From: a virus
Lineage: Duplodnaviria; Caudoviricetes
DNA length: 64,000 bases
IMG/VR virus record: IMGVR_UViG_3300028591_000109
Span: 77,568-141,567 of that record
Direction: 5' to 3' (one strand)
Below the pieces are notes generated by a model that searched no databases, was not told where the DNA came from, and worked only from the letters and a program-made list of their open reading frames with translations. Positions 8,582 to 52,132 of the stretch are shown here, piece after piece (position 1 is the stretch's first letter; every line of letters starts with the position of its first letter). A program made the position numbers and the translations under genes.

Positions 8582-8899
8582 TCAGAGGCCGAGAACAGCC
8601 TTCACGTCGTCGTCGGTGGCGAAGTGGTTCTCCATTGCCTCGCGGGCCTCGGGCGAGAGGTCCTGCAGCCCGAGGGAGTCGTCTTCTACGGACTGGCTGT
8701 TGACTTTGCCGGTGGCTATCTTGCCGTCGGGCGTCACGATGTCAACGGTGACACCGCCGTCGGCGGGCATTTGAAGTGTGCGCTGGTGTACGCGGATGTG
8801 TCGGAGTACGTTCGTGCCGTCCTCCAGCGTCTCGTAATACAGGTGAAGCTGCTGTGCGATGACATGCTTCAGTTTCGTTAGGTCTGTTGTTGTTGCCAT
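8582..8899 (-). CDS. Hypothetical structural-operon protein
   Basis: 105 aa; first gene after the promoter motif at 8928-8961. Confidence 0.65.
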   Translation of the reverse strand: MATTTDLTKLKHVIAQQLHLYYETLEDGTNVLRHIRVHQRTLQMPADGGVTVDIVTPDGKIATGKVNSQSVEDDSLGLQDLSPEAREAMENHFATDDDVKAVLGL

Positions 8900-8927: not shown

Positions 8928-8961
8928 AATATAATGAGAGGCACGACAAGGGTCAAGGGCA
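8928..8961 (-). promoter_or_regulatory. Putative phage late promoter TGCCCTTGA-N19-TATATT
   Basis: One of five copies with identical spacing. Confidence 0.65.
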
Positions 8962-8997
8962 GCGGGAAAAACCACGCAATCAGTGCAGCATGAAATC

Positions 8998-10152
8998 TCA
9001 TGAAGTGCCCAACTTAACCCAGTAATAATTGCGACCTTCCTTGTACGACATGAGTCTATAGCTGCCGCCGTTGTGTTCATAGTTCCCGTTAAGCGTAAGC
9101 TGGTCAGATATAGATATACTCTGTGCAAAGTTCCCCTTCATACATGACGCATTGTCACATTGTCGTACATATAGACTGCCGACATAAAGTTGAGAGGATG
9201 GCTGCGTATATCGGGTGTCGACGATTTCAACGATTTTGCCCTCGTAGTCCTGTGCCCTCGGCAAAGTCACGGTTATGTCATCGGTGTCAGTCCCGGTAGC
9301 CTTGATGACAACAATATCTGCTGCGCCTGTACACTTCACCATAGGTTCACCTATCCCAACATTTTCGCTGGATAGCTGGCGGGCTTCTTCTTCCGTATAG
9401 TAGCCTCCGTAGGTAAAGTTGCCTATCCAGGGTTCTTCGCTGTACTCATCCAAAAAGTCGTTGTTACAGAATCCGACGGTGTAACTGCCCGAGATAGCTA
9501 CCGAATGAAAGAAGTTCGTCGCCCTTACCACTCCTCTGAACTCACCGCTTGTTGCATGAATCTCGCCCTTGACATACGCATCGTTCTGGTACGTCTTGCC
9601 CGTCAGTCCATCCACTGCGAAGTTCGGAGCGAACTTATACCCCGACTGAGGATTCGTGCTGACCGTCGGGTCGGACGGGTCGAACCATGCGTAGGGAATT
9701 TTTCCGCCGTACTGCAGGCTGACATTGTCGGCGTTGACGGTAATTCTCGTGCCGCTGCTGTCGACGAGCGTGCCATACTGTGAAATCATCCAGTCGCCGT
9801 TGATGATGAACGAGCCGAAGTGGGCATAGGGGCCGAAGAAGGCCTGGGCGATGTAGTACTGCATGGTGGACTGCATGAGCGTCCACGGCTTCGTGCCCTG
9901 CCCGCTCACGGGGTTGTAATTCGTGGCGGGGTCTTCGTTTTTGCTTTCACCTGTCTCGACGCCCTTAGTGCCGAAGTCGAGCATATAGAAACTGTCGCCG
10001 CGCTTTACGAAGGGTGCCTGCGTCTCCTGCATGGTGTATGTTGCGTCAGACGCCCATTCGTCAGCATAGTAATACCAGCGACCTACGTGGCCTGCTTTGC
10101 CGTCCTTCACCGCAGAGATTGTAAACGATGCGCTACTGACTCTTTTCTCCAT
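8998..10152 (-). CDS. Putative tail protein
   Basis: 384 aa; aromatic/Gly-rich; lower-GC C-terminal part. Confidence 0.65.
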   Translation of the reverse strand: MEKRVSSASFTISAVKDGKAGHVGRWYYYADEWASDATYTMQETQAPFVKRGDSFYMLDFGTKGVETGESKNEDPATNYNPVSGQGTKPWTLMQSTMQYYIAQAFFGPYAHFGSFIINGDWMISQYGTLVDSSGTRITVNADNVSLQYGGKIPYAWFDPSDPTVSTNPQSGYKFAPNFAVDGLTGKTYQNDAYVKGEIHATSGEFRGVVRATNFFHSVAISGSYTVGFCNNDFLDEYSEEPWIGNFTYGGYYTEEEARQLSSENVGIGEPMVKCTGAADIVVIKATGTDTDDITVTLPRAQDYEGKIVEIVDTRYTQPSSQLYVGSLYVRQCDNASCMKGNFAQSISISDQLTLNGNYEHNGGSYRLMSYKEGRNYYWVKLGTS

Positions 10153-10166
10153 GATACACAGATGCC

Positions 10167-11360
10167 TTAGGGATTGAAAATATCGTAAGTTGCTGCCAGC
10201 ATCACACCGCTGCCGTCGTCGCCGAGCGTTGTCGTCAGGTAGTCGTAGCCAACAACTATCTGGCCGCCGGTCACGCTGCCATCCACACCAGGCACGCTGA
10301 CGCTTTTAGTCACCTCCCACAGCCCCTTGTAGTCGCCGCTCTGCTGTGGCTGCTGGCCGGCCATAGGCGAGCCGGTGGAGGTGATAACCTTGTTCTCGAA
10401 GTCGTAGAGACGGCAGTAGAAATGCGTGTAGCGTGTGTCTATCGTGGTTGTGCTGGTGGTCTTACCCATCCATCCGGTGATGGTGACGCTCTGACCCTCG
10501 CGCAGGAAGATACCGCCCTTGTTGAGTGACGAAGTGTTGTCGGTGATGACAGAGTTGACGTACATCTTCTCTTCATCGGTCTCGTCGTCAATCTCCCAGA
10601 AGGCCGATGCCTGCACGGCGGCGCTTGCGCTGGATGGGTTCTCGGTGTAGAAGTCGCAGCGCAGCACGATATTGTCGGTGATGGCCGTGTCGGCGATGCT
10701 GAACCTCGCCACCCGCTCGCCGCTAACTGTCTCGGATGCGATGGTAGAGCCAATCTGCTGACCCGTACCCTCGTCGTACCACTTGGTCCAGAACTGGTCG
10801 TTCACCTGCGACGTGCCCACGTAGAGCCTTCCCTCGACTCTGGCCGTCGGCTGCGCACTCGTCACCATCACGTCGCCGCTCAGCTGTCCATAGTACCCGC
10901 TGGCCGACAACTCGGAAACTCTGACGGGCAAGGCGATGCTGAACGGCAGCTGCGCACCGCTGAGCTCCACCGAACCCGTCATCTCGATGATGTCGTTGTC
11001 GGTATTGCTGATGGTGGCGATGTTCTTCATAATGTTGATGGCCGGGAAGGATACGGTGCCAACCGTCTTCGTGGTCTTCTGGAAATAGCCCTCGTAGCCG
11101 TCGGTCGCACAAAGGCCGTTGGAGTCGAACGTCAGCGCTACGCCGTTGTATTTCCAGGTGTATGTGGCTGCGGCTCTCTTTTTGCCGCCGAGGTCGGTCT
11201 CCACCCACACCTGCGGGTGGGTCGTCGCCCAGTTAGGCACGCACTCGCCCGACTGCTTGTTAATACGCTGCGCCAGCGTGGTGTTGCTGCGCATGATGGC
11301 GTTGACGGTCTGTCCGTCGTGGATAGCCGTTATCGTGAATCGGTTACTTACAAGTCCCAT
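10167..11360 (-). CDS. Putative tail/baseplate structural protein
   Basis: Beta-rich ORF; likely start MGLVSNRF. Confidence 0.65.
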   Translation of the reverse strand: MGLVSNRFTITAIHDGQTVNAIMRSNTTLAQRINKQSGECVPNWATTHPQVWVETDLGGKKRAAATYTWKYNGVALTFDSNGLCATDGYEGYFQKTTKTVGTVSFPAINIMKNIATISNTDNDIIEMTGSVELSGAQLPFSIALPVRVSELSASGYYGQLSGDVMVTSAQPTARVEGRLYVGTSQVNDQFWTKWYDEGTGQQIGSTIASETVSGERVARFSIADTAITDNIVLRCDFYTENPSSASAAVQASAFWEIDDETDEEKMYVNSVITDNTSSLNKGGIFLREGQSVTITGWMGKTTSTTTIDTRYTHFYCRLYDFENKVITSTGSPMAGQQPQQSGDYKGLWEVTKSVSVPGVDGSVTGGQIVVGYDYLTTTLGDDGSGVMLAATYDIFNP

Positions 11361-11373
11361 ATCTCGTTCCTCC

Positions 11374-11625
11374 TTATTTCTTGTCATTACCTGCCTCGCC
11401 GTACTGGTAGCCGTTCTCAGCTATCAGCCGCTCGGCCTCCTGCTCACTGATCAGCTCGACGTCGAGCCCGCTGACGTACTCCTCGGGTTTCATCTGCATG
11501 CGCACACCGCGCAGCGCCTTCTCGCTGAGGATGAACCGCCCGTCCTTTGTCCTGTAACTGGTGTCTATCGCGCCGGCTCTGCGGGCCACGTCGGCGCTGG
11601 CCAGGAATGTTCCTTCTGCTCTCAT
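11374..11625 (-). CDS. Hypothetical protein
   Basis: 83 aa, fills the operon gap. Confidence 0.6.
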   Translation of the reverse strand: MRAEGTFLASADVARRAGAIDTSYRTKDGRFILSEKALRGVRMQMKPEEYVSGLDVELISEQEAERLIAENGYQYGEAGNDKK

Positions 11626-11652
11626 AGTCTATGTCGTTTTTTAATTGTTGTG

Positions 11653-12990
11653 TCACCATCTTGAAACCACGTAACGCCCATCGCTCGTTACGTATTTTCC
11701 CTCGCCGTCAACCACGAGCTTGTAGCAGCCCAGCAGCCAGATGTCAGGGTACACCTCCACGTTCTCGTAGCCCGTGCGGTAGAGGTCGGCATTGCTGATG
11801 CTTACCTCGCGTCCCCAGCCTACGACCGTCACCTCTGCCGAGTTCATGCCGTGACGCTTCCACTCCAGCCGGACATATTCGTCCACCACGTCGCCGCCGA
11901 CATCTAAGCCGTCGGCCTGCACGATGGCGGCAAAGTCTTTCGTTCCGGCCAGCGTCTTTCCCTCGCGAACGACGGTGCCGCCCTTGCTGTAGGGCAGCGC
12001 GTCGATATTGGGCCATTGCCACACGGCGGCTATATGGTCGCGTGCGGGGGTGTTGGGTGCCGTGGGCTTGGTGTAATACTGCTTGCCGGTGTTGACCGTC
12101 GTGTCGGCAGTGAGCACATACGCTCCGTCCGCCTGCTCATAGTAGCCCTTGGCGTGCGGATTGCCCGTAGGGCTGTAGACGGCCTCGTAGTAGCCGATGG
12201 CGACGGCGATGTCCAGCTGGTCGGCGAAGTCCATGTCGACGACGATGGTATCTGTGCCCTGCCCCTTGCCCGCCAGCTGGTTAGCATCACGGTAGAACAG
12301 GCACTCCAGCGTCTCGCCAATCAGCGTGTCGCCGGCATACCAGAAGAACACCACGCCAGTTGTCGCGTCCTCTTCGCCCAGTGCTGCCTTCGCTGACAGG
12401 CGGAACATACTGCCGTACTGCAGGGCGCCGCCGGCCAGCGGCGTGTCGCGCTTCTGCCAGATGGGGTTGAAGGTAAGCGTGCTCGGAGCCTGTATCTTTA
12501 CGCTGTAGAACGCCTCCGGCTTGTTCTCCGCAGTCAGCAGCACAAGCTCCTCTTCGGTATAAGCCTGCTTGCGCAGGTTGTCGGGGCAGGTCACGCGGCA
12601 GGCTATCGTCACCGGCGCGTCGTAGTTCACGTTCTTGCGCACCACCAGCCTGCCTGTCAGGTTCCCCTCTGCGTCGCACTCCTTGTAATAGTCGTCGCTC
12701 GTGGTCACCGATGTTATTTCGGTGTATTCACCATTGTTCACCAGATACCACTTCTGTTCGTAGCCCGACGTTACCGTCTCGCCGGTATCGGGGTCGGTGG
12801 CCTCGAAGTGAGGACGGAGAAACAGCGGGTGCAAGCGCCGGTTGGGAATCCACAGATCGTGGGGCACGTCCTGCGCCTGTGTCAGCGGACCTCCGTTCTC
12901 GCCCTCCTGAATGATGGAGAGCGTCGTGCTGAGCGGAGTCCTTGTCGTGGCGAACACCACGGGTACTGCTGTGTTGACAATTTTCTTCAT
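11653..12990 (-). CDS. Putative tail structural protein
   Basis: 445 aa; overlaps the upstream stop (ATGA); YYEQ..YVLTADTTVNTGKQYY module. Confidence 0.65.
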   Translation of the reverse strand: MKKIVNTAVPVVFATTRTPLSTTLSIIQEGENGGPLTQAQDVPHDLWIPNRRLHPLFLRPHFEATDPDTGETVTSGYEQKWYLVNNGEYTEITSVTTSDDYYKECDAEGNLTGRLVVRKNVNYDAPVTIACRVTCPDNLRKQAYTEEELVLLTAENKPEAFYSVKIQAPSTLTFNPIWQKRDTPLAGGALQYGSMFRLSAKAALGEEDATTGVVFFWYAGDTLIGETLECLFYRDANQLAGKGQGTDTIVVDMDFADQLDIAVAIGYYEAVYSPTGNPHAKGYYEQADGAYVLTADTTVNTGKQYYTKPTAPNTPARDHIAAVWQWPNIDALPYSKGGTVVREGKTLAGTKDFAAIVQADGLDVGGDVVDEYVRLEWKRHGMNSAEVTVVGWGREVSISNADLYRTGYENVEVYPDIWLLGCYKLVVDGEGKYVTSDGRYVVSRW

Positions 12991-14369
12991 ACTATTCTTA
13001 TCGTGTTAATTATTTCTGCTTCTTCGCCGTCGATGTCGGTAAACCTTGCGACACACTTGAACGACACCTTGCCGCTGCCTGTTTCCCACCCTTCCGGCAG
13101 GTCGGCATCTTTGACGTTGATGGTGCGCGTCACGCTCTTCAGCGGCGACGTCGGGTCGTCGGGGACGGTACGGGCTGTATTCTTCCACGTCTCGTCGAGA
13201 GCACTGTTTCGGCTCTCGCGTGTCCACTGCCATTCCGTCACCATGCTGCTGATGTCCTCCTGCGAGAAGAGCAGATAGGGGACAACCGTCTCGTCGATGT
13301 AGCCAGGCCGCACACTGATACCGCTCACTGGCAAAGGAGGGTCATCGTCAGAATAGAAGCCCAGCGAAATCGTTCCGCCGCTGACGTACCTCCATTCGTC
13401 AGAGCCGAACCACGGTTCCTGAGTGGTGCCGTCCGCTACGCATTCCCATAAGGCTCCCTTGTTCCACGCCCGGCTCGTCTCCAGCTCGTTCTCTTCCTCC
13501 CATCCCTTGCTCACGGTGGTCAGCTTCTCGTACAAATCGGCGTCGGTCAGTGACGAGTTATCGCTGTCGAGCCGCTTGGCAATGAAACGGTGGCGCGTCA
13601 GGCTCTCGCGGTGGTAGGGCTCGGCTATGGGCTCGCCGTTGGTGAAGGTCAGAGGCTCCGTGCCCTCCCAGCCGAGTGCAGCAGCCACGGCGGCGGGCAG
13701 TGTGCCGTCGGGAGTGCGCGTCCCAGTGGGGCCTCGGTAGATGACGTGCGGTGTCTGTGCCCACGAGCCACGGTCGGTGATGACCGTGCGCACGGGGTTG
13801 TCGGGCAGGTCGTCGGGGTTCAGCCGCCACCGGTTGTTGTATTCCTCTGTACCCAGTATGCCGGTGTCGAGGTCTACGGTGCGCTGGTTGTTCTCGTCGG
13901 GTGCAGACACCGTGCCCATCTTTATCCACCAGTAGTCGGGATGGTCTACTACCTTAGGGAATCCGCGTTCATCATACTGCCCGGCAAGACCATCCTGCAT
14001 GACATAGGAATACTTGTCGAACCATTGCCCCGCCAGCCCGTAAGGGTTGTCCGGGCCATACTGAGACTGCGCCGCAAAAACGAGGTAGGCGCTGCCATCG
14101 GTGACGTAAACCTCGCTTTTCTGAAGCCTGGCATAAATGGTGTAAGGACCATTGCCGCAGTTCAGCCTTCGGTTGCGTCCGGTCAGCGTCCATTCGCGGA
14201 AAGAGTTGGTGTTTGGATTAATACCGAGCCGTTCGACGCCGGGAGCAAAGACCTTGATCTTTGTGCCACGCGACACATAGACTGCAAGGTCGTTGGCCGT
14301 GCCGTTGCAGTTTGGCACGATGCTGATGGCCGACGGGGCTATGTAGTAGACAGGGGATGTACGAGCCAT
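12987..14369 (-). CDS. Putative tail structural protein
   Basis: 460 aa; first gene after the promoter motif. Confidence 0.65.
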   Translation of the reverse strand: MARTSPVYYIAPSAISIVPNCNGTANDLAVYVSRGTKIKVFAPGVERLGINPNTNSFREWTLTGRNRRLNCGNGPYTIYARLQKSEVYVTDGSAYLVFAAQSQYGPDNPYGLAGQWFDKYSYVMQDGLAGQYDERGFPKVVDHPDYWWIKMGTVSAPDENNQRTVDLDTGILGTEEYNNRWRLNPDDLPDNPVRTVITDRGSWAQTPHVIYRGPTGTRTPDGTLPAAVAAALGWEGTEPLTFTNGEPIAEPYHRESLTRHRFIAKRLDSDNSSLTDADLYEKLTTVSKGWEEENELETSRAWNKGALWECVADGTTQEPWFGSDEWRYVSGGTISLGFYSDDDPPLPVSGISVRPGYIDETVVPYLLFSQEDISSMVTEWQWTRESRNSALDETWKNTARTVPDDPTSPLKSVTRTINVKDADLPEGWETGSGKVSFKCVARFTDIDGEEAEIINTIRIV

Positions 14370-14398
14370 TGATTGTTATATCGCCTTTTGTTTCGCAC

Positions 14399-14432
14399 AT
14401 TATATATATAATGCGGATGAAGGTCAAGGGCA
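14399..14432 (-). promoter_or_regulatory. Putative late promoter TGCCCTTGA-N19-TATAAT (leftward)
   Basis: Motif copy, divergent from 14537-14570. Confidence 0.7.
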
Positions 14433-14447
14433 GGATTTCTATTCCGA

Positions 14448-14524
14448 GCCACAGAATTTTTATTATAGCCCACAGAAATTTCAAAGAAGCCCACAGAATT
14501 TTAATTTCAGCCCACAGAATTTTC
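14448..14524. repeat. Four CCACAGAA(T/A)TTT direct repeats at 20-21 bp spacing
   Basis: Seen directly between the divergent promoters. Confidence 0.8.
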
Positions 14525-14536
14525 GTTCCGCCTGCC

Positions 14537-14570
14537 TGCCCTTGATTCGCGCTCGCGTAATATATATAAT
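14537..14570 (+). promoter_or_regulatory. Putative late promoter TGCCCTTGA-N19-TATAAT (rightward)
   Basis: Motif copy 30 bp upstream of ATG 14601. Confidence 0.7.
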
Positions 14571-14600
14571 GTGTGCAAAACTAAGGCGATATAAAAAATC

Positions 14601-17489
14601 ATGGAACATCTTGCACTTGAGGTTTTCGACCTCGCTACTAAGGAGAACCCGAACCCTACCGGCAGCCAGTATGCCGTGCTGGAGCCGGACGCAACCATCA
14701 CCATCACCGACACGTCGGAGATTTTTGCTGACGGCGATGTGTGGTCCTACGACTTTACGCTGAACGTCCGCGCCAACGCGCACCTGTTCGCCACGGCTGG
14801 CGACATTCACGGCTCACGGTTGCACGAGCAGATCAATAAGCGGAAGGCCCGCCTGTGGGTGGAGGGCGTGCCGCTCTACTTAGGCTACCTGAAGCTCGGC
14901 GATGAAGCGGAGGTGGATGCGGAGGGCAACGTGGACGTCAGCTTCGAGAGCGGACAGAAAACGTTTGAGGAGTTGATAGAGGGAGCCAAGGCCAACCAGG
15001 TGCCGATGATAGGAAATGTCAAGATTGGCGTGGCACTCTGGCAGAAACGCCAAGTCTCTTACAATTTAAAACTCAGAGCGTCTGCTATTTTTGAGAATAA
15101 AAAAGAATCAAAGGATGGGGAGATAAAAGAAACCCTTAACGATTCTAACCTAATCACGTTTACAAGCGATGACGAACAGAACCCCGTCCAACAATACCCC
15201 AGGATGGTGTTTCCTGTGGGCACTTTCAAAGATTGGAGCGACTATAAGGACACTACCTACGATGTTAATGAACTCAACACTGACAGCCCTTATACCGAAA
15301 ACGAAAATGGTGTACCGACGCATCCGTTCTGTAATGTAGCATTATGTTATCAGCGGCAGGGTTATGAAAAGAAAAACGAAAGAGACGAACTGATACCAGA
15401 CTACACCAGCGAGCCGGAGGCGCAGCGAGGCTACGAATACATGCCCGCTAAACGTGTGAACTCCGCGCCAAACTTCTTTGTGCTCTACTGGTTCCGTGCA
15501 TTGATGAACCATCTTGGCATCTATATCGAAGAGAACCAAATGCTTGATGTAGAGGATTTGCGCAGACTATTCTTCGTGAACACCAATTGTGCGTACAAGG
15601 TGCCGAAAAGAAAATTCTACACGGGTGATGACATCAGCTGGTACCAATTCCTTCCAAGTACTGGCAGATTGGTGCCTGAATACTACAACATCGAGAAGAA
15701 TTTTAATAAAGAAGAAAGTGCATTTAAGAGCGTGGAAGACGGGTTTACCGTAAGCACACCGATAATAGATCCATCCACAGCCGCCTCACTTATCCCGCAG
15801 TCAATAATACCGACCATCGACCGCATTGCCGTTAAGGTAAGCGAAGTCAGCAAAAGCAACGAAGATGCACAGAAACACGTATATGAGAACAACAACCGCT
15901 GGCTCCATGATGCCTATGCCACGAGCGACTGTTTCCCGAATGTAGACATCTCGGAAGTCATCAATGCCATAGAGAGCGGATTCGGTGTGCGTCTGCTATT
16001 CAGCAACGACTATAAGCGGGTAAGGATTGTGCTGCTGCGCAATGTATTCCGGAACGAGGATGTACAGGACATAACGTGCGAGATTGTGGACGAGGATGTT
16101 AAGGTGGAGAATAATATCCGTGGCTTCCGCATGACCTACGGCAATACGGAGGACACCCATTTCTACTACAAGGGCTTTGCCGACATGTTGCCGCACAAGA
16201 AAGAACTGTGGGCAGACACAAGCGACGAGCATGACTATTCGCACTGGGATTTGAATGCCATCTATGCCAACATCATACACAAGGTGTCGGCCTTCGACAA
16301 GACCTGCTATGTGACACCCAACACAGGCAATGCCTATGGTATTAAGATTGACAAGGACGCCAAGCGTTATGACGAGCTACATCCATCGCTTTTCGGGTAC
16401 GGTGAGTTTATGGATGCCGAAGACGGCGACTGTACTGGCGAAGACGAGACCATCAAGACTGTCAACATGGGCTTCACCCCCGCCATTATGAACGACCTGA
16501 ACATGGAGGAAGAACGCGAAAACGGCTCACGCGAACAGCGGTTTGCTCTATTTGTCGGCGAGACGATGCGTCCTCGTCGGCCTGAACTGATAGAAGGCAC
16601 TGATTACAATGACCCTGAAACAGTATATCCTATGGATGGAGAATATGGGCTATACGGTGACAAGTCGAAGGCAAAGGATATGAAGTCAGACGGCATCGTA
16701 AAGCCTGGCGAGTTCGCAGTGAGGTCGGATATGTATGCCAGTGCGAGCGGTCTTAAAACCACAGTTCGCTATCTCCTCAAATACGTTGACATGTCTTTTT
16801 TCGACGGACCAGACTCCGTACCCGTGTATGCGCAATGGGATATTACTAACCTGAATATCGACGGTCATATCAACGAGGGCTACCGCCTGTATCTGCAGGA
16901 CAACTACGAACCTAACGACGACGGCATCTCGCCTATCGAGACGCACGACTGGGGCTTGACGCTGGGCATCATGCGCGGCAGCGGCAGCGACGCCTACGTA
17001 AACTACACGGCCGATCCTGACGACGGCGAGGGCAACGACACATGGGACATCATGGCCGGCAGCAGCGTGACGGCACACCCGGACACCTGCGACTCGTATG
17101 GCAACGAGTGGGACTACAACGGAGACGCTGAAGGGATAGGCGACCCCGACGGCAGGGTCAGCCTGAAGCTCCGGGCAGAAAAGCCTAACCCTTATTACAA
17201 CCCGCATCTGCCGGAGAGCGACAGCAACCGCCGTTATCTGCAGATTTCCAATAAGAACCTGCGGCAGCGCGGCCTCGCTGACCAGTTCTACAAGGAGTAC
17301 AGCTTCTGGGTGCGCAATGCCCGCATCGTGAAACGGACGGTACGCATGACGCTGGCACAGCTGCTGACCATCGACAAGACAAAACGTGTCAACGTAGGTG
17401 ACGTGACGGGATTCATCAGGAAGATGCAGTATTCGGTGAGTAACGAGACGGGGCTTGGCAATGTAACGATGGAGATAATGTATATATGA
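14601..17489 (+). CDS. Large phage structural (tail-hub-like) protein
   Basis: 962 aa ORF; N-terminal WSYDFTL..NAHLF pattern of Bacteroidales phage tail proteins. Confidence 0.7.
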   Translation: MEHLALEVFDLATKENPNPTGSQYAVLEPDATITITDTSEIFADGDVWSYDFTLNVRANAHLFATAGDIHGSRLHEQINKRKARLWVEGVPLYLGYLKLGDEAEVDAEGNVDVSFESGQKTFEELIEGAKANQVPMIGNVKIGVALWQKRQVSYNLKLRASAIFENKKESKDGEIKETLNDSNLITFTSDDEQNPVQQYPRMVFPVGTFKDWSDYKDTTYDVNELNTDSPYTENENGVPTHPFCNVALCYQRQGYEKKNERDELIPDYTSEPEAQRGYEYMPAKRVNSAPNFFVLYWFRALMNHLGIYIEENQMLDVEDLRRLFFVNTNCAYKVPKRKFYTGDDISWYQFLPSTGRLVPEYYNIEKNFNKEESAFKSVEDGFTVSTPIIDPSTAASLIPQSIIPTIDRIAVKVSEVSKSNEDAQKHVYENNNRWLHDAYATSDCFPNVDISEVINAIESGFGVRLLFSNDYKRVRIVLLRNVFRNEDVQDITCEIVDEDVKVENNIRGFRMTYGNTEDTHFYYKGFADMLPHKKELWADTSDEHDYSHWDLNAIYANIIHKVSAFDKTCYVTPNTGNAYGIKIDKDAKRYDELHPSLFGYGEFMDAEDGDCTGEDETIKTVNMGFTPAIMNDLNMEEERENGSREQRFALFVGETMRPRRPELIEGTDYNDPETVYPMDGEYGLYGDKSKAKDMKSDGIVKPGEFAVRSDMYASASGLKTTVRYLLKYVDMSFFDGPDSVPVYAQWDITNLNIDGHINEGYRLYLQDNYEPNDDGISPIETHDWGLTLGIMRGSGSDAYVNYTADPDDGEGNDTWDIMAGSSVTAHPDTCDSYGNEWDYNGDAEGIGDPDGRVSLKLRAEKPNPYYNPHLPESDSNRRYLQISNKNLRQRGLADQFYKEYSFWVRNARIVKRTVRMTLAQLLTIDKTKRVNVGDVTGFIRKMQYSVSNETGLGNVTMEIMYI

Positions 17490-17520
17490 TGCTAATTGTC
17501 GTATGACAGTACAAAAAAAA

Positions 17521-17907
17521 CTACTTCTTTCTGACAAATCTATCGCCAAAAATCCAAAACGTGTCGTTGTCAGGATTATAACTTCCGTTTATTTCGTCAC
17601 GCCACACATTGCCATAACTATTGACGTAAACAATGCGTAAATAAACAGTACTACCATATAAGTTGTACGTAAAGGAACCACCTACGTCGCCACCGGAATC
17701 GTACATGCCCGTACCATCAGAATTAAACGAGTAAGACCGTTTGTCACAAACCCATGTGCCAAGGATTTTTTTCTCGTACCAATTTTCGTAGTTATTACCA
17801 CCATCGCCATCGTCATCTTTGTTACAGGCGGTGAAACCAAGTGTGAATACACATGCAAGCGCCAGCACTGCTATGCGGCTTACGGAAAGGAATGTTTTTG
17901 TTTTCAT
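17521..17907 (-). CDS. Lipoprotein moron
   Basis: Start MKTKTF; lipobox FTAC followed by NKDDD; low GC; own TACATTTG promoter at 17935-17942. Confidence 0.75.
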   Translation of the reverse strand: MKTKTFLSVSRIAVLALACVFTLGFTACNKDDDGDGGNNYENWYEKKILGTWVCDKRSYSFNSDGTGMYDSGGDVGGSFTYNLYGSTVYLRIVYVNSYGNVWRDEINGSYNPDNDTFWIFGDRFVRKK

Positions 17908-17989
17908 TGTTTGTTCGTTGTAGCATTTCGTTTGCAAATGTACGGAAAAACGAGTGAATTGCCAAATGATCGTCGGAATAAATGTCGCT

Positions 17990-18023
17990 CGCCCTTGATT
18001 ATGGGCGGCAATGCGGCTATCTT
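17990..18023 (+). promoter_or_regulatory. Putative late promoter CGCCCTTGA-N19-TATCTT
   Basis: Motif copy upstream of ATG 18044. Confidence 0.6.
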
Positions 18024-18043
18024 CGAGGAAAAAGCAGCGACTT

Positions 18044-19102
18044 ATGGCAAACATCGTCATTATAGAAGGCCAGTTCAACAAGGACGGTTCCTACTTCGCC
18101 GACTCGCCGGTCATCATCCGTGTGTCTGGGCTGGCATGGCCGAGTATCAACCCCAGCCCGTTCACCGTCGTTCAGGTGAATGTAGTGTATGGTGACAAGG
18201 TGGTGGGCAACTTCCACGCCGATACGGGCGGTCAGACGGAAATCACGTTCGACATCTCGTCGGCACTACAGGCTATCTGGGCCGACTACGGCTACGCCGC
18301 CGAGCTGACTGCAGCCAACGGCAGGAGCAGCACCACGCGGGGCTACCGCAGCTACTCGATTGAGATGTACACCGAGTATATTGCCGATGGCGGAGTGTTC
18401 ACCACTTCGCCCACAGCGACGTTCCCAGGTGGAAAGTGCATGATAGGCGGGCTGACGGAGTGGGAGCGCAGCCGTGTGGGCAATGCCGACGCATCGACGC
18501 AGGAGTTCACCAACCTGCGCTACGGCGACGCATCGACCAAGCCGACCGGCACACCGGAGCGCGTGGGCAGCCTGAGCCCTACGTCGTGGGTGGACTTGAG
18601 CGCAAGCGGCACCACACAGCACTACTACGCTCCCGGCGCAACGATGGGCAACGACGGCCCCAGCGACCACGCTCCGCTGGTGCTGCGCGACAGCGTACCG
18701 TATGTCGATTTCCTCTTCCTGAACCGGCGCGGAGCCATTGAGACCTGCAGCGGGCAGACTTTGGAGTCGATGGGCATCAACGTGAAGGTGACGCAGTACA
18801 GTCGCACGGGGCGTCCGTCGTTCAACCCCGTGCGCTCGCTGATGGCCATCGGACAGGACGGACGGCGCTCGTGGCAGATGTCGAGCGGTTACGTTACTCG
18901 CGAGTGGGCCGAGTGGTGGGCACTGGAATTTCTGGGTGGCAAGCGCAAGCAGTGGTGGATGCGATACCCGATCGGAGATGCGAACGGAACGTATGTCCCC
19001 GTCATCGTGGAGCCGTCGAAGCAGAACATCAGCATCTATGACCGGTCGAAGCAGCAGATGGCGCACGTGGACTTCACGGTGACGCTGGCATTAGAAGGAT
19101 GA
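18044..19102 (+). CDS. Phage structural protein
   Basis: Start MANIVII; DFLFLNRRGAIET motif, similar to the FxNxxG pattern of Bacteroidetes phage tail proteins. Confidence 0.7.
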   Translation: MANIVIIEGQFNKDGSYFADSPVIIRVSGLAWPSINPSPFTVVQVNVVYGDKVVGNFHADTGGQTEITFDISSALQAIWADYGYAAELTAANGRSSTTRGYRSYSIEMYTEYIADGGVFTTSPTATFPGGKCMIGGLTEWERSRVGNADASTQEFTNLRYGDASTKPTGTPERVGSLSPTSWVDLSASGTTQHYYAPGATMGNDGPSDHAPLVLRDSVPYVDFLFLNRRGAIETCSGQTLESMGINVKVTQYSRTGRPSFNPVRSLMAIGQDGRRSWQMSSGYVTREWAEWWALEFLGGKRKQWWMRYPIGDANGTYVPVIVEPSKQNISIYDRSKQQMAHVDFTVTLALEG

Positions 19103-19105
19103 TTT

Positions 19106-19197
19106 AAGTGAAGAGTGAAGAATGAAGAGTGAAGAATAACAAGCGGCGACTGTGCGGTAGCAAATTCTTCATTCTTCACTCTTCATTCTTCATTCAA
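19106..19197. repeat. Inverted doublet of heptamer repeats (AAGAGTG/AAGAATG)n ... GCGGTAGCAAATTCTT(CATTCTT/CACTCTT)n
   Basis: Seen directly; related copies at 25008, 44075, 54036 and 55754. Confidence 0.85.
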
Positions 19198-19200
19198 CTC

Positions 19201-19234
19201 TGCCCTTGATTTCGGACGCCGTTATAACGATATT
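19201..19234 (+). promoter_or_regulatory. Putative late promoter TGCCCTTGA-N19-GATATT
   Basis: Motif copy upstream of the holin-like genes. Confidence 0.55.
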
Positions 19235-19279: not shown

Positions 19280-19621
19280 ATGAACCAAGTAATGATTGAC
19301 CTCTGGCCCCTGTTGGTGCCCATCCTGCTGGCAGCCGTCGGGTGGCAGTGGCGCGAAAACCACCAGCTGAAAATCCGCGTGGCGGTGCTGGAGACTACAG
19401 TAGAGAACTTAGAGAATACGCTGGAGAACATTCGCGACCGACAGGATTCTCAGTCGAAGAAACAGGATAATATCCTCGACCGCTTACAGTCGATGGAGAG
19501 TGAAGTACTGGAACGCTTAGGCAAGACCGACGCCAACATATCGTCGCTGTCGGCTCAACTGAAGGGGTTGCACGACTTGATTCTTATTTCAGACAAAGGT
19601 ATTCACATCAAAAGGACATAG
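19280..19621 (+). CDS. Membrane-anchored coiled-coil protein (lysis-associated?)
   Basis: One N-terminal transmembrane segment plus coiled coil. Confidence 0.6.
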   Translation: MNQVMIDLWPLLVPILLAAVGWQWRENHQLKIRVAVLETTVENLENTLENIRDRQDSQSKKQDNILDRLQSMESEVLERLGKTDANISSLSAQLKGLHDLILISDKGIHIKRT

Positions 19622-19623
19622 CT

Positions 19624-19983
19624 ATGGGCGAGAAGATTAAGAACACAGGAAGCGAACTGAAGAACCGCTGGCTGATGAGGATGCCGCGCTTCTTCCGCAT
19701 GATAGTGAGAATTGTGCTGAGCGTTGCCGCCACCGCCACTACCGTGAACTTCGGCGTGCCAGCCCTTGGCGGTGTGCTCTATGAGTGGTGGCCCGACGTA
19801 TATACGCATATCCTCGTGGGTAGCATCTGCATCGTCATGGTGTGTAAACTCACCGTGGCCGGCGGCTATAAGGAGCTGGACCCGGAGGAGCTGCTGCGCG
19901 GCAAGATGAATCGGCATATCCAGATGACGCACGACATCGACGAGCAGATGGATGGCGAGCAGCCGGGCGACGAACAGGGTTAG
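19624..19983 (+). CDS. Putative holin
   Basis: Two transmembrane segments, basic N-terminus (RW..RMPRFF), charged C-terminus. Confidence 0.55.
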   Translation: MGEKIKNTGSELKNRWLMRMPRFFRMIVRIVLSVAATATTVNFGVPALGGVLYEWWPDVYTHILVGSICIVMVCKLTVAGGYKELDPEELLRGKMNRHIQMTHDIDEQMDGEQPGDEQG

Positions 19984-20111: not shown

Positions 20112-20146
20112 AAAAGGCCGCCATCCGTGAGGATAGCGGCCTTTTT
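20112..20146. terminator. Bidirectional intrinsic terminator
   Basis: AAAAGGCCGC...GCGGCCTTTTT between convergent genes. Confidence 0.75.
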
Positions 20147-20165: not shown

Positions 20166-20720
20166 TTAGAGGTGTGCCATCTCACGGTCAGCAGCTTCCA
20201 ATGGGGAAACACCAGTGGAGTGAAGCCCCTTTTCCGAGGCGACTTGCATGCGCAGGTCGTCGTTCTGTTGCCGAAGGAAGTCTATGAGTTTATCCTTTTC
20301 CACAAGCTGTGAACGCATGAAAGCAATCTCCTCCTTCTTTTCGTCCATGTGTGAACGCAGGTTGGCAATGATCTCGTCCTTGGCGGCAAGCAAGGCGGTG
20401 AACGGTTGTTCGACCGCCTGCTTCTCAGGGTTTTCCACAGGTACATCCTTGGTCAGCATGACGCTGCTTTGGCCAAGCAAGAACAACAGGTTGAATATCT
20501 TTCCAGTTTTGATGTACAACTTGTTGATCGTGGCATCGCTCGGACGTGTGTAATAGTTTACGATATTCGTAATCGTGTCTTCGTCGATACCAATTTTCTT
20601 CGCTAATTTTTCATTAGTGTCAAGACTCTCCGGGTATGTGCTCCGCAGATAAGCTAACGCTGCAGCAATGTTATCGTTGCGTGTCTTGTCTTCAACAGAT
20701 TTCTTTTCGTTCTTCTTCAT
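20166..20720 (-). CDS. XRE-type HTH repressor (CI-like) with C-terminal coiled coil
   Basis: NEKLAKKIGIDEDTITNIVN HTH; divergent from the replication operon. Confidence 0.7.
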   Translation of the reverse strand: MKKNEKKSVEDKTRNDNIAAALAYLRSTYPESLDTNEKLAKKIGIDEDTITNIVNYYTRPSDATINKLYIKTGKIFNLLFLLGQSSVMLTKDVPVENPEKQAVEQPFTALLAAKDEIIANLRSHMDEKKEEIAFMRSQLVEKDKLIDFLRQQNDDLRMQVASEKGLHSTGVSPLEAADREMAHL

Positions 20721-20791: not shown

Positions 20792-20944
20792 TACCTTTGC
20801 CTCGAAATAAATAAAGTTTATAATCGGACAGGGAACAGCCTGCAGACACCATGAGGCGTCTTTCAGCGGAAAGCGTCGTGCCGCCAATGCTTAAAATTGA
20901 AATAACCATTGCAAAGGTAAGGCTTTTCCGCCGATTATAAACTT
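20792..20944. promoter_or_regulatory. Face-to-face TACCTTTG promoters with 14-bp inverted repeat (switch region)
   Basis: Plus-strand promoter 20792-20799; minus-strand promoter 20912-20919; AAGTTTATAATCGG 20814-20827 / CCGATTATAAACTT 20931-20944. Confidence 0.7.
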
Positions 20945-27392: not shown

Positions 27393-27695
27393 ATGGCAAG
27401 ACACAAGCAAAGAAGATACGCAGAAATGAAGCCCGCCGTGAAGATGAACGGCGGCTACAGCCGACGTCAGCGCACCGACATACTGACCGCGCAGGGCGAG
27501 ATAACCGAGGCGCTGGGCTACGACAACTACCACGTGGAGCTGGACAACGGCGTCACCATCCTCGCCACCATCAGCGGCAAGATGCGCCAGAACCACATCC
27601 GCGTGATGCCAGGCGACCGCGTGGAGCTGGAACTATCCGCCTACGACCTCACCCGTGGCCGCATAACACGAAGATTTCAAGTTAAACAACAGTAA
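27393..27695 (+). CDS. infA: Translation initiation factor IF-1 homologue with N-terminal extension
   Basis: GEITEAL..VELDNG..ILATISGKMRQNHIRVMPGDRVELELSAYDLTRGRITRR matches the IF-1 consensus. Confidence 0.92.
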   Translation: MARHKQRRYAEMKPAVKMNGGYSRRQRTDILTAQGEITEALGYDNYHVELDNGVTILATISGKMRQNHIRVMPGDRVELELSAYDLTRGRITRRFQVKQQ

Positions 27696-51526: not shown

Positions 51527-52132
51527 TTACTTTTCAATGTCATACAAATCCACTCCCAGCTCGTCGGCCACAGCCGTGAGCGCCGTGTGATTCCAGTGGT
51601 GCTCACAGAACACCTCGCTGCACTTCACAATCACCTCCTCCGTGATGTCCTCGATAGAGGCGTAGGCTTCCGTGTTCGCCGGACTGTCATACTGCTCTGC
51701 CAGCGCAGCGTTCACGCTGATAAGATCCTCGATGCTCACCATCTCCGCCGCATCGTCAAGCACATGGCGCAGCGTGCGGTTCATCCATCTTACGGCGGCT
51801 TCCTCGCTGCCCAGATACTCATGCTCGTGGAAGAACCTGCCACCGTCGAGCACCGACCGCTCCGACGTATCGACATGCACGATGCAACGGATAATCCTGT
51901 CGCCGCGCTGGCGGCTCTTGATCCTCACGTCCGGCCACGCCTCGCTCACCAACTGTTCCAGTTCCTCCTCATAGAAACCGCTGGCATAGTTCTCCGCCTC
52001 TCCGTCGCTCCAATGCACCAGCAGCGAATAGCCGCCACCTCCAAGTTGACGGCGCACCTCCAACTTTGCGCCATACTCCTTCAGGTTCTCGTTGGCCTTT
52101 TCCAGGGCGGCCTCCCATGTTTTCTTTGCCAT
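51527..52132 (-). CDS. Hypothetical protein
   Basis: 201 aa. Confidence 0.65.
   Translation of the reverse strand: MAKKTWEAALEKANENLKEYGAKLEVRRQLGGGGYSLLVHWSDGEAENYASGFYEEELEQLVSEAWPDVRIKSRQRGDRIIRCIVHVDTSERSVLDGGRFFHEHEYLGSEEAAVRWMNRTLRHVLDDAAEMVSIEDLISVNAALAEQYDSPANTEAYASIEDITEEVIVKCSEVFCEHHWNHTALTAVADELGVDLYDIEK

Follow-up and report, generated by a model that had tools for sequence, protein, structure and literature searches.

The final 64 kb of the IMG/VR virus record IMGVR_UViG_3300028591_000109 (64,000 nucleotides, positions 77,568 to 141,567 of a single record of 141,567 bp; 55.7% G+C; completeness rated 100%; hereafter the window) carry five copies of a bipartite motif, in which the octamer GCCCTTGA, extended by a preceding T or C to a 9-bp box such as TGCCCTTGA, is followed exactly 19 nt later by a TATAAT-like hexamer. 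Because of their placement, orientation, spacing and conservation, these sites and their counterparts in related phages are very probably late promoters. The reading that we favor, at a probability of roughly 0.55, is that the host RNA polymerase with its primary sigma factor (sigma A) would use the hexamer as a weakened form of its own -7 element, together with a putative phage factor that would read the box.

The record is best explained as the ~141-kb genome of a tailed phage whose hosts are rumen Bacteroidales. It codes for a tape-measure protein of 3075 aa, a head-maturation protease, an endolysin, a ParA protein and a DnaC-like loader, as well as for DUF4494, DUF3127, HU-HIG and PDDEXK_3 proteins, which are families typical of Bacteroidota and their phages. 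Homologs of the likely capsid protein are annotated in rumen metagenome-assembled genomes (MAGs) of Prevotella, Bacteroidaceae and Bacteroidales. More than half of the phage proteins have no family match.

Occurrence and placement of the motif

The window contains six exact copies of GCCCTTGA, at 8953-8960(-), 9565-9572(+), 14424-14431(-), 14538-14545(+), 17991-17998(+) and 19202-19209(+). Five of these are intergenic, and exactly 19 nt further on they are followed by TATATT, TATAAT, TATAAT, TATCTT and GATATT, respectively. The distance from the hexamer end to the ATG of a long frame on the same strand is 28, 29, 30, 20 and 45 nt in the same order, so that the 9-nt coordinates, the hexamers at N19 and the spacing of 20-45 bp to a start codon given in an earlier note on this DNA are all found in the sequence. 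The copy at 9565-9572(+), which falls within the gene 8998-10152(-) and lacks a hexamer at N19, is not listed in that note and was set aside as a chance occurrence. The composite pattern GCCCTTGA-N19-KAWHWT is found five times, against a shuffle mean of 0.00, and none of 100 shuffles reaches five. When a single mismatch is allowed in GCCCTTGA, there is no enrichment (66 copies versus 54.3 expected; 12 of 100 shuffles reach 66). The window signal resides in the exact box and its partner hexamer. The five sites and other features discussed below are collected in Table 1.

Table 1. Coordinates of the predicted late promoters and of other features (window positions, unless marked as genome positions).
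Feature	Position	Strand	Elements	Associated genes and remarks
Late promoter	8928..8961	-	box TGCCCTTGA 8953-8961; hexamer TATATT 8928-8933; predicted +1 A 8921	8582-8899(-), then downstream tail-fiber/receptor-binding genes; 36.4 bits in position weight matrix (PWM)
Late promoter	14399..14432	-	box 14424-14432; hexamer TATAAT 14399-14404; predicted +1 A 14392	12987-14369(-) (460-aa gene) and four downstream genes
Late promoter	14537..14570	+	box 14537-14545; hexamer TATAAT 14565-14570; predicted +1 A 14577	962-aa gene 14601-17489(+)
Late promoter	17990..18023	+	box CGCCCTTGA 17990-17998; hexamer TATCTT 18018-18023; predicted +1 A 18030	18044-19102(+); motif at only 2/11 orthologs
Late promoter	19201..19234	+	box 19201-19209; hexamer GATATT 19229-19234; predicted +1 A 19241	two small membrane proteins, 19280-19621 and 19624-19983; motif at 5/6 orthologs
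Host-type promoter	17937..17965	-	TTG-N20-TACATTTG	lipoprotein-like moron open reading frame 17521-17907(-)
Terminator-like hairpin, 15 pairs	20112..20145		A run before, T run after	
Switch region	20792..20919		TACCTTTG at 20792(+) and, facing it, at 20919(-); host-type -7 boxes	
Core candidate, 173-aa Cro/CI-type helix-turn-helix protein	genome 1529-2050			DUF5053-like model
Core candidate, 103-aa basic protein	genome 4092-4403			69% mean column identity; most conserved small protein
Core candidate, 202-aa protein, fold-novel	genome 6769-7377 (L001)			

The exact octamer by itself is modestly enriched in the whole genome, with 14 copies versus 4.8 expected and a maximum of 15 in 200 shuffles. 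The composite motif occurs at 13 sites versus 0.08 expected (maximum of 2 in 200 shuffles), and a PWM scan adds one variant, CTGCCCTTGC, at genome position 13322. All 13 sites are co-oriented with the ATG of the next gene. Downstream of these sites lie units with the portal-like gene, the tape-measure operon, the protease and capsid genes, and tail and fiber genes; the variant site heads a stretch with the endolysin and a probable terminase, and one weak copy with a TAACTT hexamer is located upstream of an HU-HIG gene.

A single-protein search for related loci and a tblastn search against GenBank phages returned no relatives. An alignment-based search with the capsid protein yielded 23 IMG/VR loci (43-99% identity) with two to five composite sites each, and in 15 of these the box lies within 140 nt of the start of the capsid gene. 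Twelve further records (101-145 kb, 91-100% complete) were fetched for comparison, giving 13 genomes and 1.68 Mb in total with the present phage, and the composite motif is kept in all 12. The 13 genomes hold 119 copies of TGCCCTTGA, of which 107 have the hexamer at N19; it stands at N18 in five, at N20 in one and at N16 in three, and is missing in six. Almost all composite sites built on GCCCTTGA (113 of 116) are followed within 200 nt by the start of an ATG-initiated open reading frame of at least 60 aa. Hexamer and ATG are 26 nt apart at the median, and 14 to 60 nt apart in most of the 113 cases; random positions have such a frame within range in 1442 of 2600 cases, though without this tight spacing.

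The motif also recurs before the same genes. It precedes the orthologs of the protease in 12/12 relatives, of the portal-like gene in 11/12, of a 426-aa gene in 11/12, of the 460-aa gene in 11/11, of the 962-aa gene in 10/11 and of the capsid gene in 8/12; for the first gene behind the 8928..8961 promoter, three orthologs are available and all three have it. These motif-bearing orthologs span genomes whose capsid proteins are 43-87% identical. No motif was found upstream of the orthologs of the 202-aa gene (0/12), ParA (0/12), the 173-aa gene (0/11) or the primase (0/11), nor upstream of those of the tape-measure gene (0/12), a 641-aa gene (0/12) or the endolysin (0/11). The earlier proposal of a distinct promoter class ahead of virion and lysis-like genes is upheld. 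A 38-kb relative (G019; L245-L246) carries yTCCCTTGA instead of TGCCCTTGA at all six of its sites. This concerted change suggests that the reader of the box travels and evolves with the phage. An IMG/VR scan for the variant box gave several matches (three) on the contig of G019 only and no complete genome with the variant, and a scan for the standard box plus hexamer produced, among the matches listed, mostly single chance matches that are uninformative on spread beyond the family.

Three further observations concern individual sites. The listed start of the gene behind the 17990..18023 promoter, ATG 18011, falls inside the promoter spacer, and the in-frame ATG 18044 is therefore likely the true start; the longest starts of the genes at genome positions 22402, 58337 and 70852 likewise lie upstream of their late promoters. 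The divergent promoters at 14399 and 14537 form an inverted duplicate of promoter plus leader, with arms 14391-14434 and 14535-14578 that are 75% complementary and a second arm pair, 14366-14387 and 14583-14604, at 82%, within window positions 14366-14604. Both ATGs of this pair are preceded by a conserved leader piece, AAGGCGATATAA, which they may share as an RNA element or for translation.

Comparison with the promoters of Bacteroidota hosts

The family consensus, built from 50 sites in five genomes, reads yTGCCCTTGAyyt-N16-TA(T/A)HTTGC-N4-AAAAA and holds more than 18 bits. Several of its positions were left free in the search pattern: before CCCTTGA there is C or T, then T (47/50), then G (50/50); after it come a pyrimidine (48/50), a second pyrimidine and T; and the hexamer is followed by G (32/50) and C (27/50). 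The A-run begins at the seventh base past the hexamer (A in 45/50). If the first T of the hexamer is placed at -12, the box extends from -40 to -32, its TTG from -35 to -33, and the conserved A falls at +1. Indeed, an A is found at the predicted +1 of all five window promoters (Table 1), and the leaders that follow are A-rich and lack Shine-Dalgarno sequences. No further signal is present upstream of the box (at most 0.26 bit per position in the -15 to -4 flank of the 50 sites). The motif is bipartite, the spacer between box and hexamer being unconserved, and the box TGCCCTTGA itself is asymmetric, without a dyad partner.

The hexamer varies between sites. Among 107 late hexamers we count TATCTT (n = 34), GATATT (n = 17), TATATT (n = 16), TAAATT (n = 14), TATTTT (n = 8), TATAAT (n = 5), TAACTT (n = 5) and others (n = 8), or TA(T/A)(not G)TT-GC in summary. 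The search pattern fixed A-11 and T-7 and partly fixed -12, -10 and -8, and T stands at -12 in 42 of the 50 consensus sites.

Housekeeping promoters of Bacteroidota consist of a -33 TTTG and a -7 TAnnTTTG element (PMC2483708, PMC6847099, PMC9330008). According to PMC6847099, the -7 element follows the rule TAHHTTTG with T-6 and G-5 nearly invariant, and the primary sigma factor, of the sigma ABfr type, has no region 1.1, has diverged DNA-recognition regions and does not use the Escherichia coli consensus. The primary sigma factors of the presumed hosts are indeed Bacteroidota-type proteins of 286-287 aa. The phage genome itself contains promoters with this host-type organization. In five genomes, 55 intergenic and co-oriented TAnnTTTG boxes have a TTG at N20 in 15 cases and at N19 in four, while no other single spacer occurs more than three times; outside the present genome, such counts take in a few late boxes whose sequence is by chance TAnnTTTG. 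The present genome has 11 TTG-N19-21-TAnnTTTG sites, none of which is a late box (N20 in six, N19 in three, N21 in two).

Since TTGAnn-N17-TATAAT equals TTG-N20-TA, the late motif shares its spacing with host-type promoters. The resemblance to the Bacteroidota promoters, as they are described in these sources, also extends to T-12, A-11, the absence of G at -10 and -9, T-8 and T-7, an A at +1 and an A-rich leader free of Shine-Dalgarno sequences; at the fourth hexamer position, which was free in the pattern, G occurs in 1/107, matching the H of the host rule. The differences are found at two places. The two bases past the hexamer (-6/-5) are GC in 48/107 late sites, TG in 11/107 and something else in the remaining 48, so that the host T-6/G-5 feature is absent from most. 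Further upstream, the late TTG is embedded in the invariant TGCCCTTGA, whereas the host -33 element is only weakly defined. The downstream half can thus be described as a host element altered at -6/-5 and the upstream half, judging by its sequence, as a phage-only extension of the host TTG. The earlier characterization of the motif as non-host and sigma70-shaped is not supported, as TTG-N20-TA is shared with host-type promoters and TATAAT makes up only 5/107; what is specific to the phage is the invariant box. With respect to the E. coli promoter TTGACA-N17-TATAAT, three of the five window sites do score 10-11/12 in a generic sigma-70 scan, but this consensus is not that of the likely Bacteroidales hosts, whose primary sigma factor does not use it (PMC6847099).

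The phage-specificity of the box follows from a comparison with presumed host genomes. Five MAGs of rumen Bacteroidales (2.3-3.5 Mb) contain 60 pattern matches, 46 of which lie on one contig of ~92-126 kb in each MAG (10/15, 10/13, 9/10, 8/10 and 9/12). By their lengths and by matches identical to sites of genome G002, these five contigs are presumed to be the phage contigs. The 14 matches elsewhere in the MAGs are near the control level, which is seven for the reversed pattern, and give no sign of use by host genes.

Reading of the box: proposed mechanism and alternatives

From these features we infer promoter function, recognition of the hexamer by host sigma A and recognition of the box by a phage factor. 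In a first step, the host core RNA polymerase with its sigma ABfr-type primary sigma factor would read the downstream element, which obeys the host rules from -12 to -7, departs from them at -6/-5 (GC for TG) and should be weak alone. Mutational work has associated changes at -6/-5 with weakened Bacteroidota promoters. In a second step, the invariant 9-bp box, in the place of the loosely defined host -33 element, would be read by a putative phage-encoded specificity factor that is not a recognizable sigma-70 relative and could be either a class-II-type activator or a partner in the appropriation of sigma region 4, like T4 MotA/AsiA. As a result, ~13 units with head, tail, fiber and lysis-like genes would be silent during carriage and then be switched on together.

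The middle promoters of phage T4, which combine a MotA box centered near -30 with the host sigma-70 -10 element and rely on sigma appropriation by MotA and AsiA, appear to be the functionally closest model. In both systems a host-type -10 element is kept, an asymmetric phage box of 9 bp at a fixed distance replaces the -35 element, a single temporal class is coordinated through many copies, and the box is missing from the host genome. Unlike the MotA box, the box described here is centered near -36 and contains the host TTG. Moreover, the class is late rather than middle, and the host sigma factor is of the sigma ABfr type without region 1.1 (PMC6847099). No homolog of MotA or AsiA was found in the Pfam, PHROGs and NCBIfam scans. 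Activator-dependent late promoters are a second point of comparison, as known for P1 Lpa (site at about -22), Mu C/Mor and P2 Ogr/P4 Delta (Ogr at about -55). They share with the present sites a recognizable -10 element, a non-canonical upstream half and a dedicated activator for all late operons, which is putative here; P1 additionally shares the plasmid-prophage lifestyle. However, the sites of Lpa, Mu C and Ogr are dyad-symmetric or located elsewhere, while the present box is asymmetric and overlaps the -35 region.

A dedicated box factor would have to be phage-borne, and conserved candidate genes for DNA-binding proteins are located outside the window. The earlier note had placed a phage sigma factor or activator there, and the sigma factor found no support. 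A six-frame search of the whole genome with Sigma70_r2 gave no match at E ≤ 1. Models of region 4 gave only matches below the cut-off in the genome (13-16 bits), all of them in the accessory gene P0121. Profile comparison (hhalign) of 67 families with orthologs in at least 4 of the 12 relatives against host sigma A reached a best probability of 5.8%. Activators of the MotA, AsiA and P1/Mu/P2 types are absent as families from the Pfam, PHROGs and NCBIfam scans of the called open reading frames, from which analogs without similarity would escape. No known kind of regulator that fits the box is visible in the phage genome. The protein encoded by P0121 (genome 57045-57857; L004:3045-3857) consists of four tandem helix-turn-helix modules of ~45 aa that resemble sigma region 4, and its gene is positioned outside the window, just upstream of the first late promoter of the head/tail block. 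It was discarded as a general factor since a hidden Markov model of the module finds it only in G000 and G003 of five genomes, and a protein search in only one of five relatives. A second accessory protein with two sigma-4-like helix-turn-helix modules (genome 40499-41308) is also restricted to G000 and G003. For P0123 (window 51527-52132), an acidic protein without a PDB relative, a weak match to sigma70-ECF (E 0.013) was regarded as noise. Finally, the tape-measure protein was considered as an RNA polymerase; it contains no DxDGD-type motif, and its first 950 residues have no PDB relative.

The core non-structural genes, present in 11-12 of the 12 relatives, include three in a conserved module at genome 1.5-7.4 kb, outside the window (Table 1). 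For the 103-aa protein, the AlphaFold model is unusable (mean predicted local distance difference test score, pLDDT, of 51), a PDB profile search gave no meaningful match, and the Atlas contains neither a model of it nor named neighbors. The 202-aa protein has a confident model (pLDDT 91.2), for which a Foldseek search of the PDB gave nothing at E ≤ 0.001. Its family counts 547 homologs, and the 120 listed have no Pfam domain and carry only the name 'hypothetical protein'. The motifs PIECP, GVLRPW and RREWQRR are invariant in the family; RREWQRR stands in the last helix, where R190, E191, W192 and R194 do not vary in 39 sequences. The VIA-align list for this protein consists mostly of generic three-helix domains (Z 4.3-6.3). 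A tentative extension of the favored mechanism, which we hold to be possible but the lesser chance, is that a new specificity factor, unrelated to sigma-70 or MotA, would retarget the sigma ABfr holoenzyme to the -40/-32 box; such a factor may be this fold-novel core protein with RREWQRR in its last helix.

Several points weigh against host polymerase aided by a phage factor. The sites are promoters by prediction, and one contig from an RNA library bridges the 8960 promoter, although that library may contain DNA. With its good TTG where the host has the -33 element, the box might let the unaided host holoenzyme use these promoters. The expected weakening by the -6/-5 changes depends on the near-invariance of these positions in PMC6847099 and on the mutational work. 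MAG binning is weak evidence on host identity. Among the candidates, P0121 as the sole sigma-region-4-like protein is too rare to be the general factor, and residues 142-202 of the 202-aa protein resemble three-helix DNA-binding domains at only Z 5-6, which is not distinctive. The latter protein may instead serve replication, since a host-type TAACTTTG box lies upstream of its gene and the gene adjoins the iteron-like repeats of the replicon; this role is equally possible.

The unaided use of the promoters is the core of the alternative that survives best, though we consider it rather unlikely. Here, an operator would be fused with an extended -33/-35 element in the box, and a repressor bound to TGCCCTTGA at each of the late promoters would set the timing. 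The phage-plasmid P1 provides a precedent with its asymmetric C1 operators scattered over the genome. The asymmetric box, the host-like geometry and hexamer, and the failure to find an activator or sigma factor in the genome all agree with this explanation, as does the apparent persistence of the phage as a plasmid (ParA, iteron-like repeats), for which lasting repression is needed. Yet, the fixed N19 in 107 of 119 boxes speaks for a polymerase contact and is expected of an operator only if it is fused to the TTG, and the retention of TG at -6/-5 in only 11/107 is typical of activator-dependent promoters. In addition, host genes should carry a box that the polymerase favors, and the off-phage matches are near control level.

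A phage sigma factor too divergent to be recognized could read both elements, which we judge improbable. Phage sigma factors are notorious for their divergence, with T4 gp55 and SPO1 gp28/gp34 as examples, and more than half of the proteins of the present phage escape family assignment; a bipartite promoter with sigma-like spacing and very high information content would also suit a sigma factor. Nonetheless, the searches described above returned no Sigma70_r2, region 4 only below cut-off in the accessory P0121, and no family above 5.8% against sigma A, so that the promoters differ from those of SPO1 gp28/gp34 and T4 gp55 in that no sigma-70-family gene was found in the genome. The hexamer moreover keeps the rules of the host sigma factor, which a separate sigma factor would not need.

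Still less credit is given to a host-encoded alternative factor, either a second sigma A paralog or an activator, whose availability alone would be controlled by the phage. Three of the five presumed host MAGs (G006, G008 and G009) have two RpoD-like primary-sigma genes (~290 aa), but the other two have one. Host contigs are essentially free of the box, hence no host regulon appears to use it, and the change of the box at 6/6 sites in G019 also disagrees with a host factor. That the motif is no promoter at all, and rather a mobile repeat or a signal for packaging, replication or recombination, is hardly credible even though the starts are predicted ones, given its strict co-orientation with the next gene, from whose ATG it is 14-60 nt away in most of the 113 cases, its bipartite build around an unconserved spacer, and its position before orthologous genes across genomes with 43-87% capsid identity.

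Neighboring features and implications for the phage family

The available RNA data come from a single sheep-gut metatranscriptome sample (runs X1 and X2) in the form of assembled contigs. Two contig ends are near predicted starts (19252 versus +1 19241, and 8907 versus +1 8921, i.e., 11 and 14 nt inside), but they were not used as evidence because other ends misfit, contigs cannot show starts and carry-over of DNA is possible. A stretch of ttcattcttca-type repeats at 19105-19194, upstream of the 19202 promoter, has a ~100-fold summed contig depth compared to its flanks and many loose ends; this peak probably stems from a repeat that also occurs in other elements of the sample. The two small membrane proteins behind the 19201..19234 promoter have N-terminal hydrophobic helices in their translations and a weak Rz-like spanin match (E 6.7e-5). 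The terminator-like hairpin separates this last late unit from a repressor-like gene, 20166-20720(-), with a weak HTH_3 match.

The host-type promoter at 17937..17965 serves a moron that is inserted antisense between two late units and encodes a signal peptide ending in ...FTAC. The earlier assignment of TAnnTTTG boxes to the morons and the switch region was borne out by this promoter and by the two opposed boxes of the switch region. A 100-aa gene at window 27393-27695(+) matches IF-1/eIF-1A (Pfam PF01176, E 3.9e-22) and is kept in three of the four relatives first examined at 61-96% identity. Given the unusual translation initiation of the host phylum, an IF-1 gene carried by a phage may merit attention.

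In the full-text literature searched, which did not cover subscription journals, neither the motif nor a class of late promoters in Bacteroidota phages came up. Transcription control in Bacteroidota phages is almost unstudied in that literature, except for crAss-like phages, which have their own polymerases. The present analysis provides a clean and testable late-promoter consensus that is kept while capsid identity drops from 87% to 43%. Most structural genes of this family defy annotation, and the motif marks its late operons and separates late genes from morons driven by host promoters and from replication and partition genes. As the genome shows no sigma factor or known activator, the motif points to an undescribed redirection of the atypical Bacteroidota RNA polymerase. 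If a new specificity factor of the kind considered above is indeed at work, it would represent sigma appropriation in a Bacteroidota version, conserved throughout a large family of phage-plasmids from the rumen, and the box together with its putative factor could give an orthogonal expression switch for Bacteroidales, i.e., a tightly off promoter system for the engineering of Prevotella and Bacteroides.

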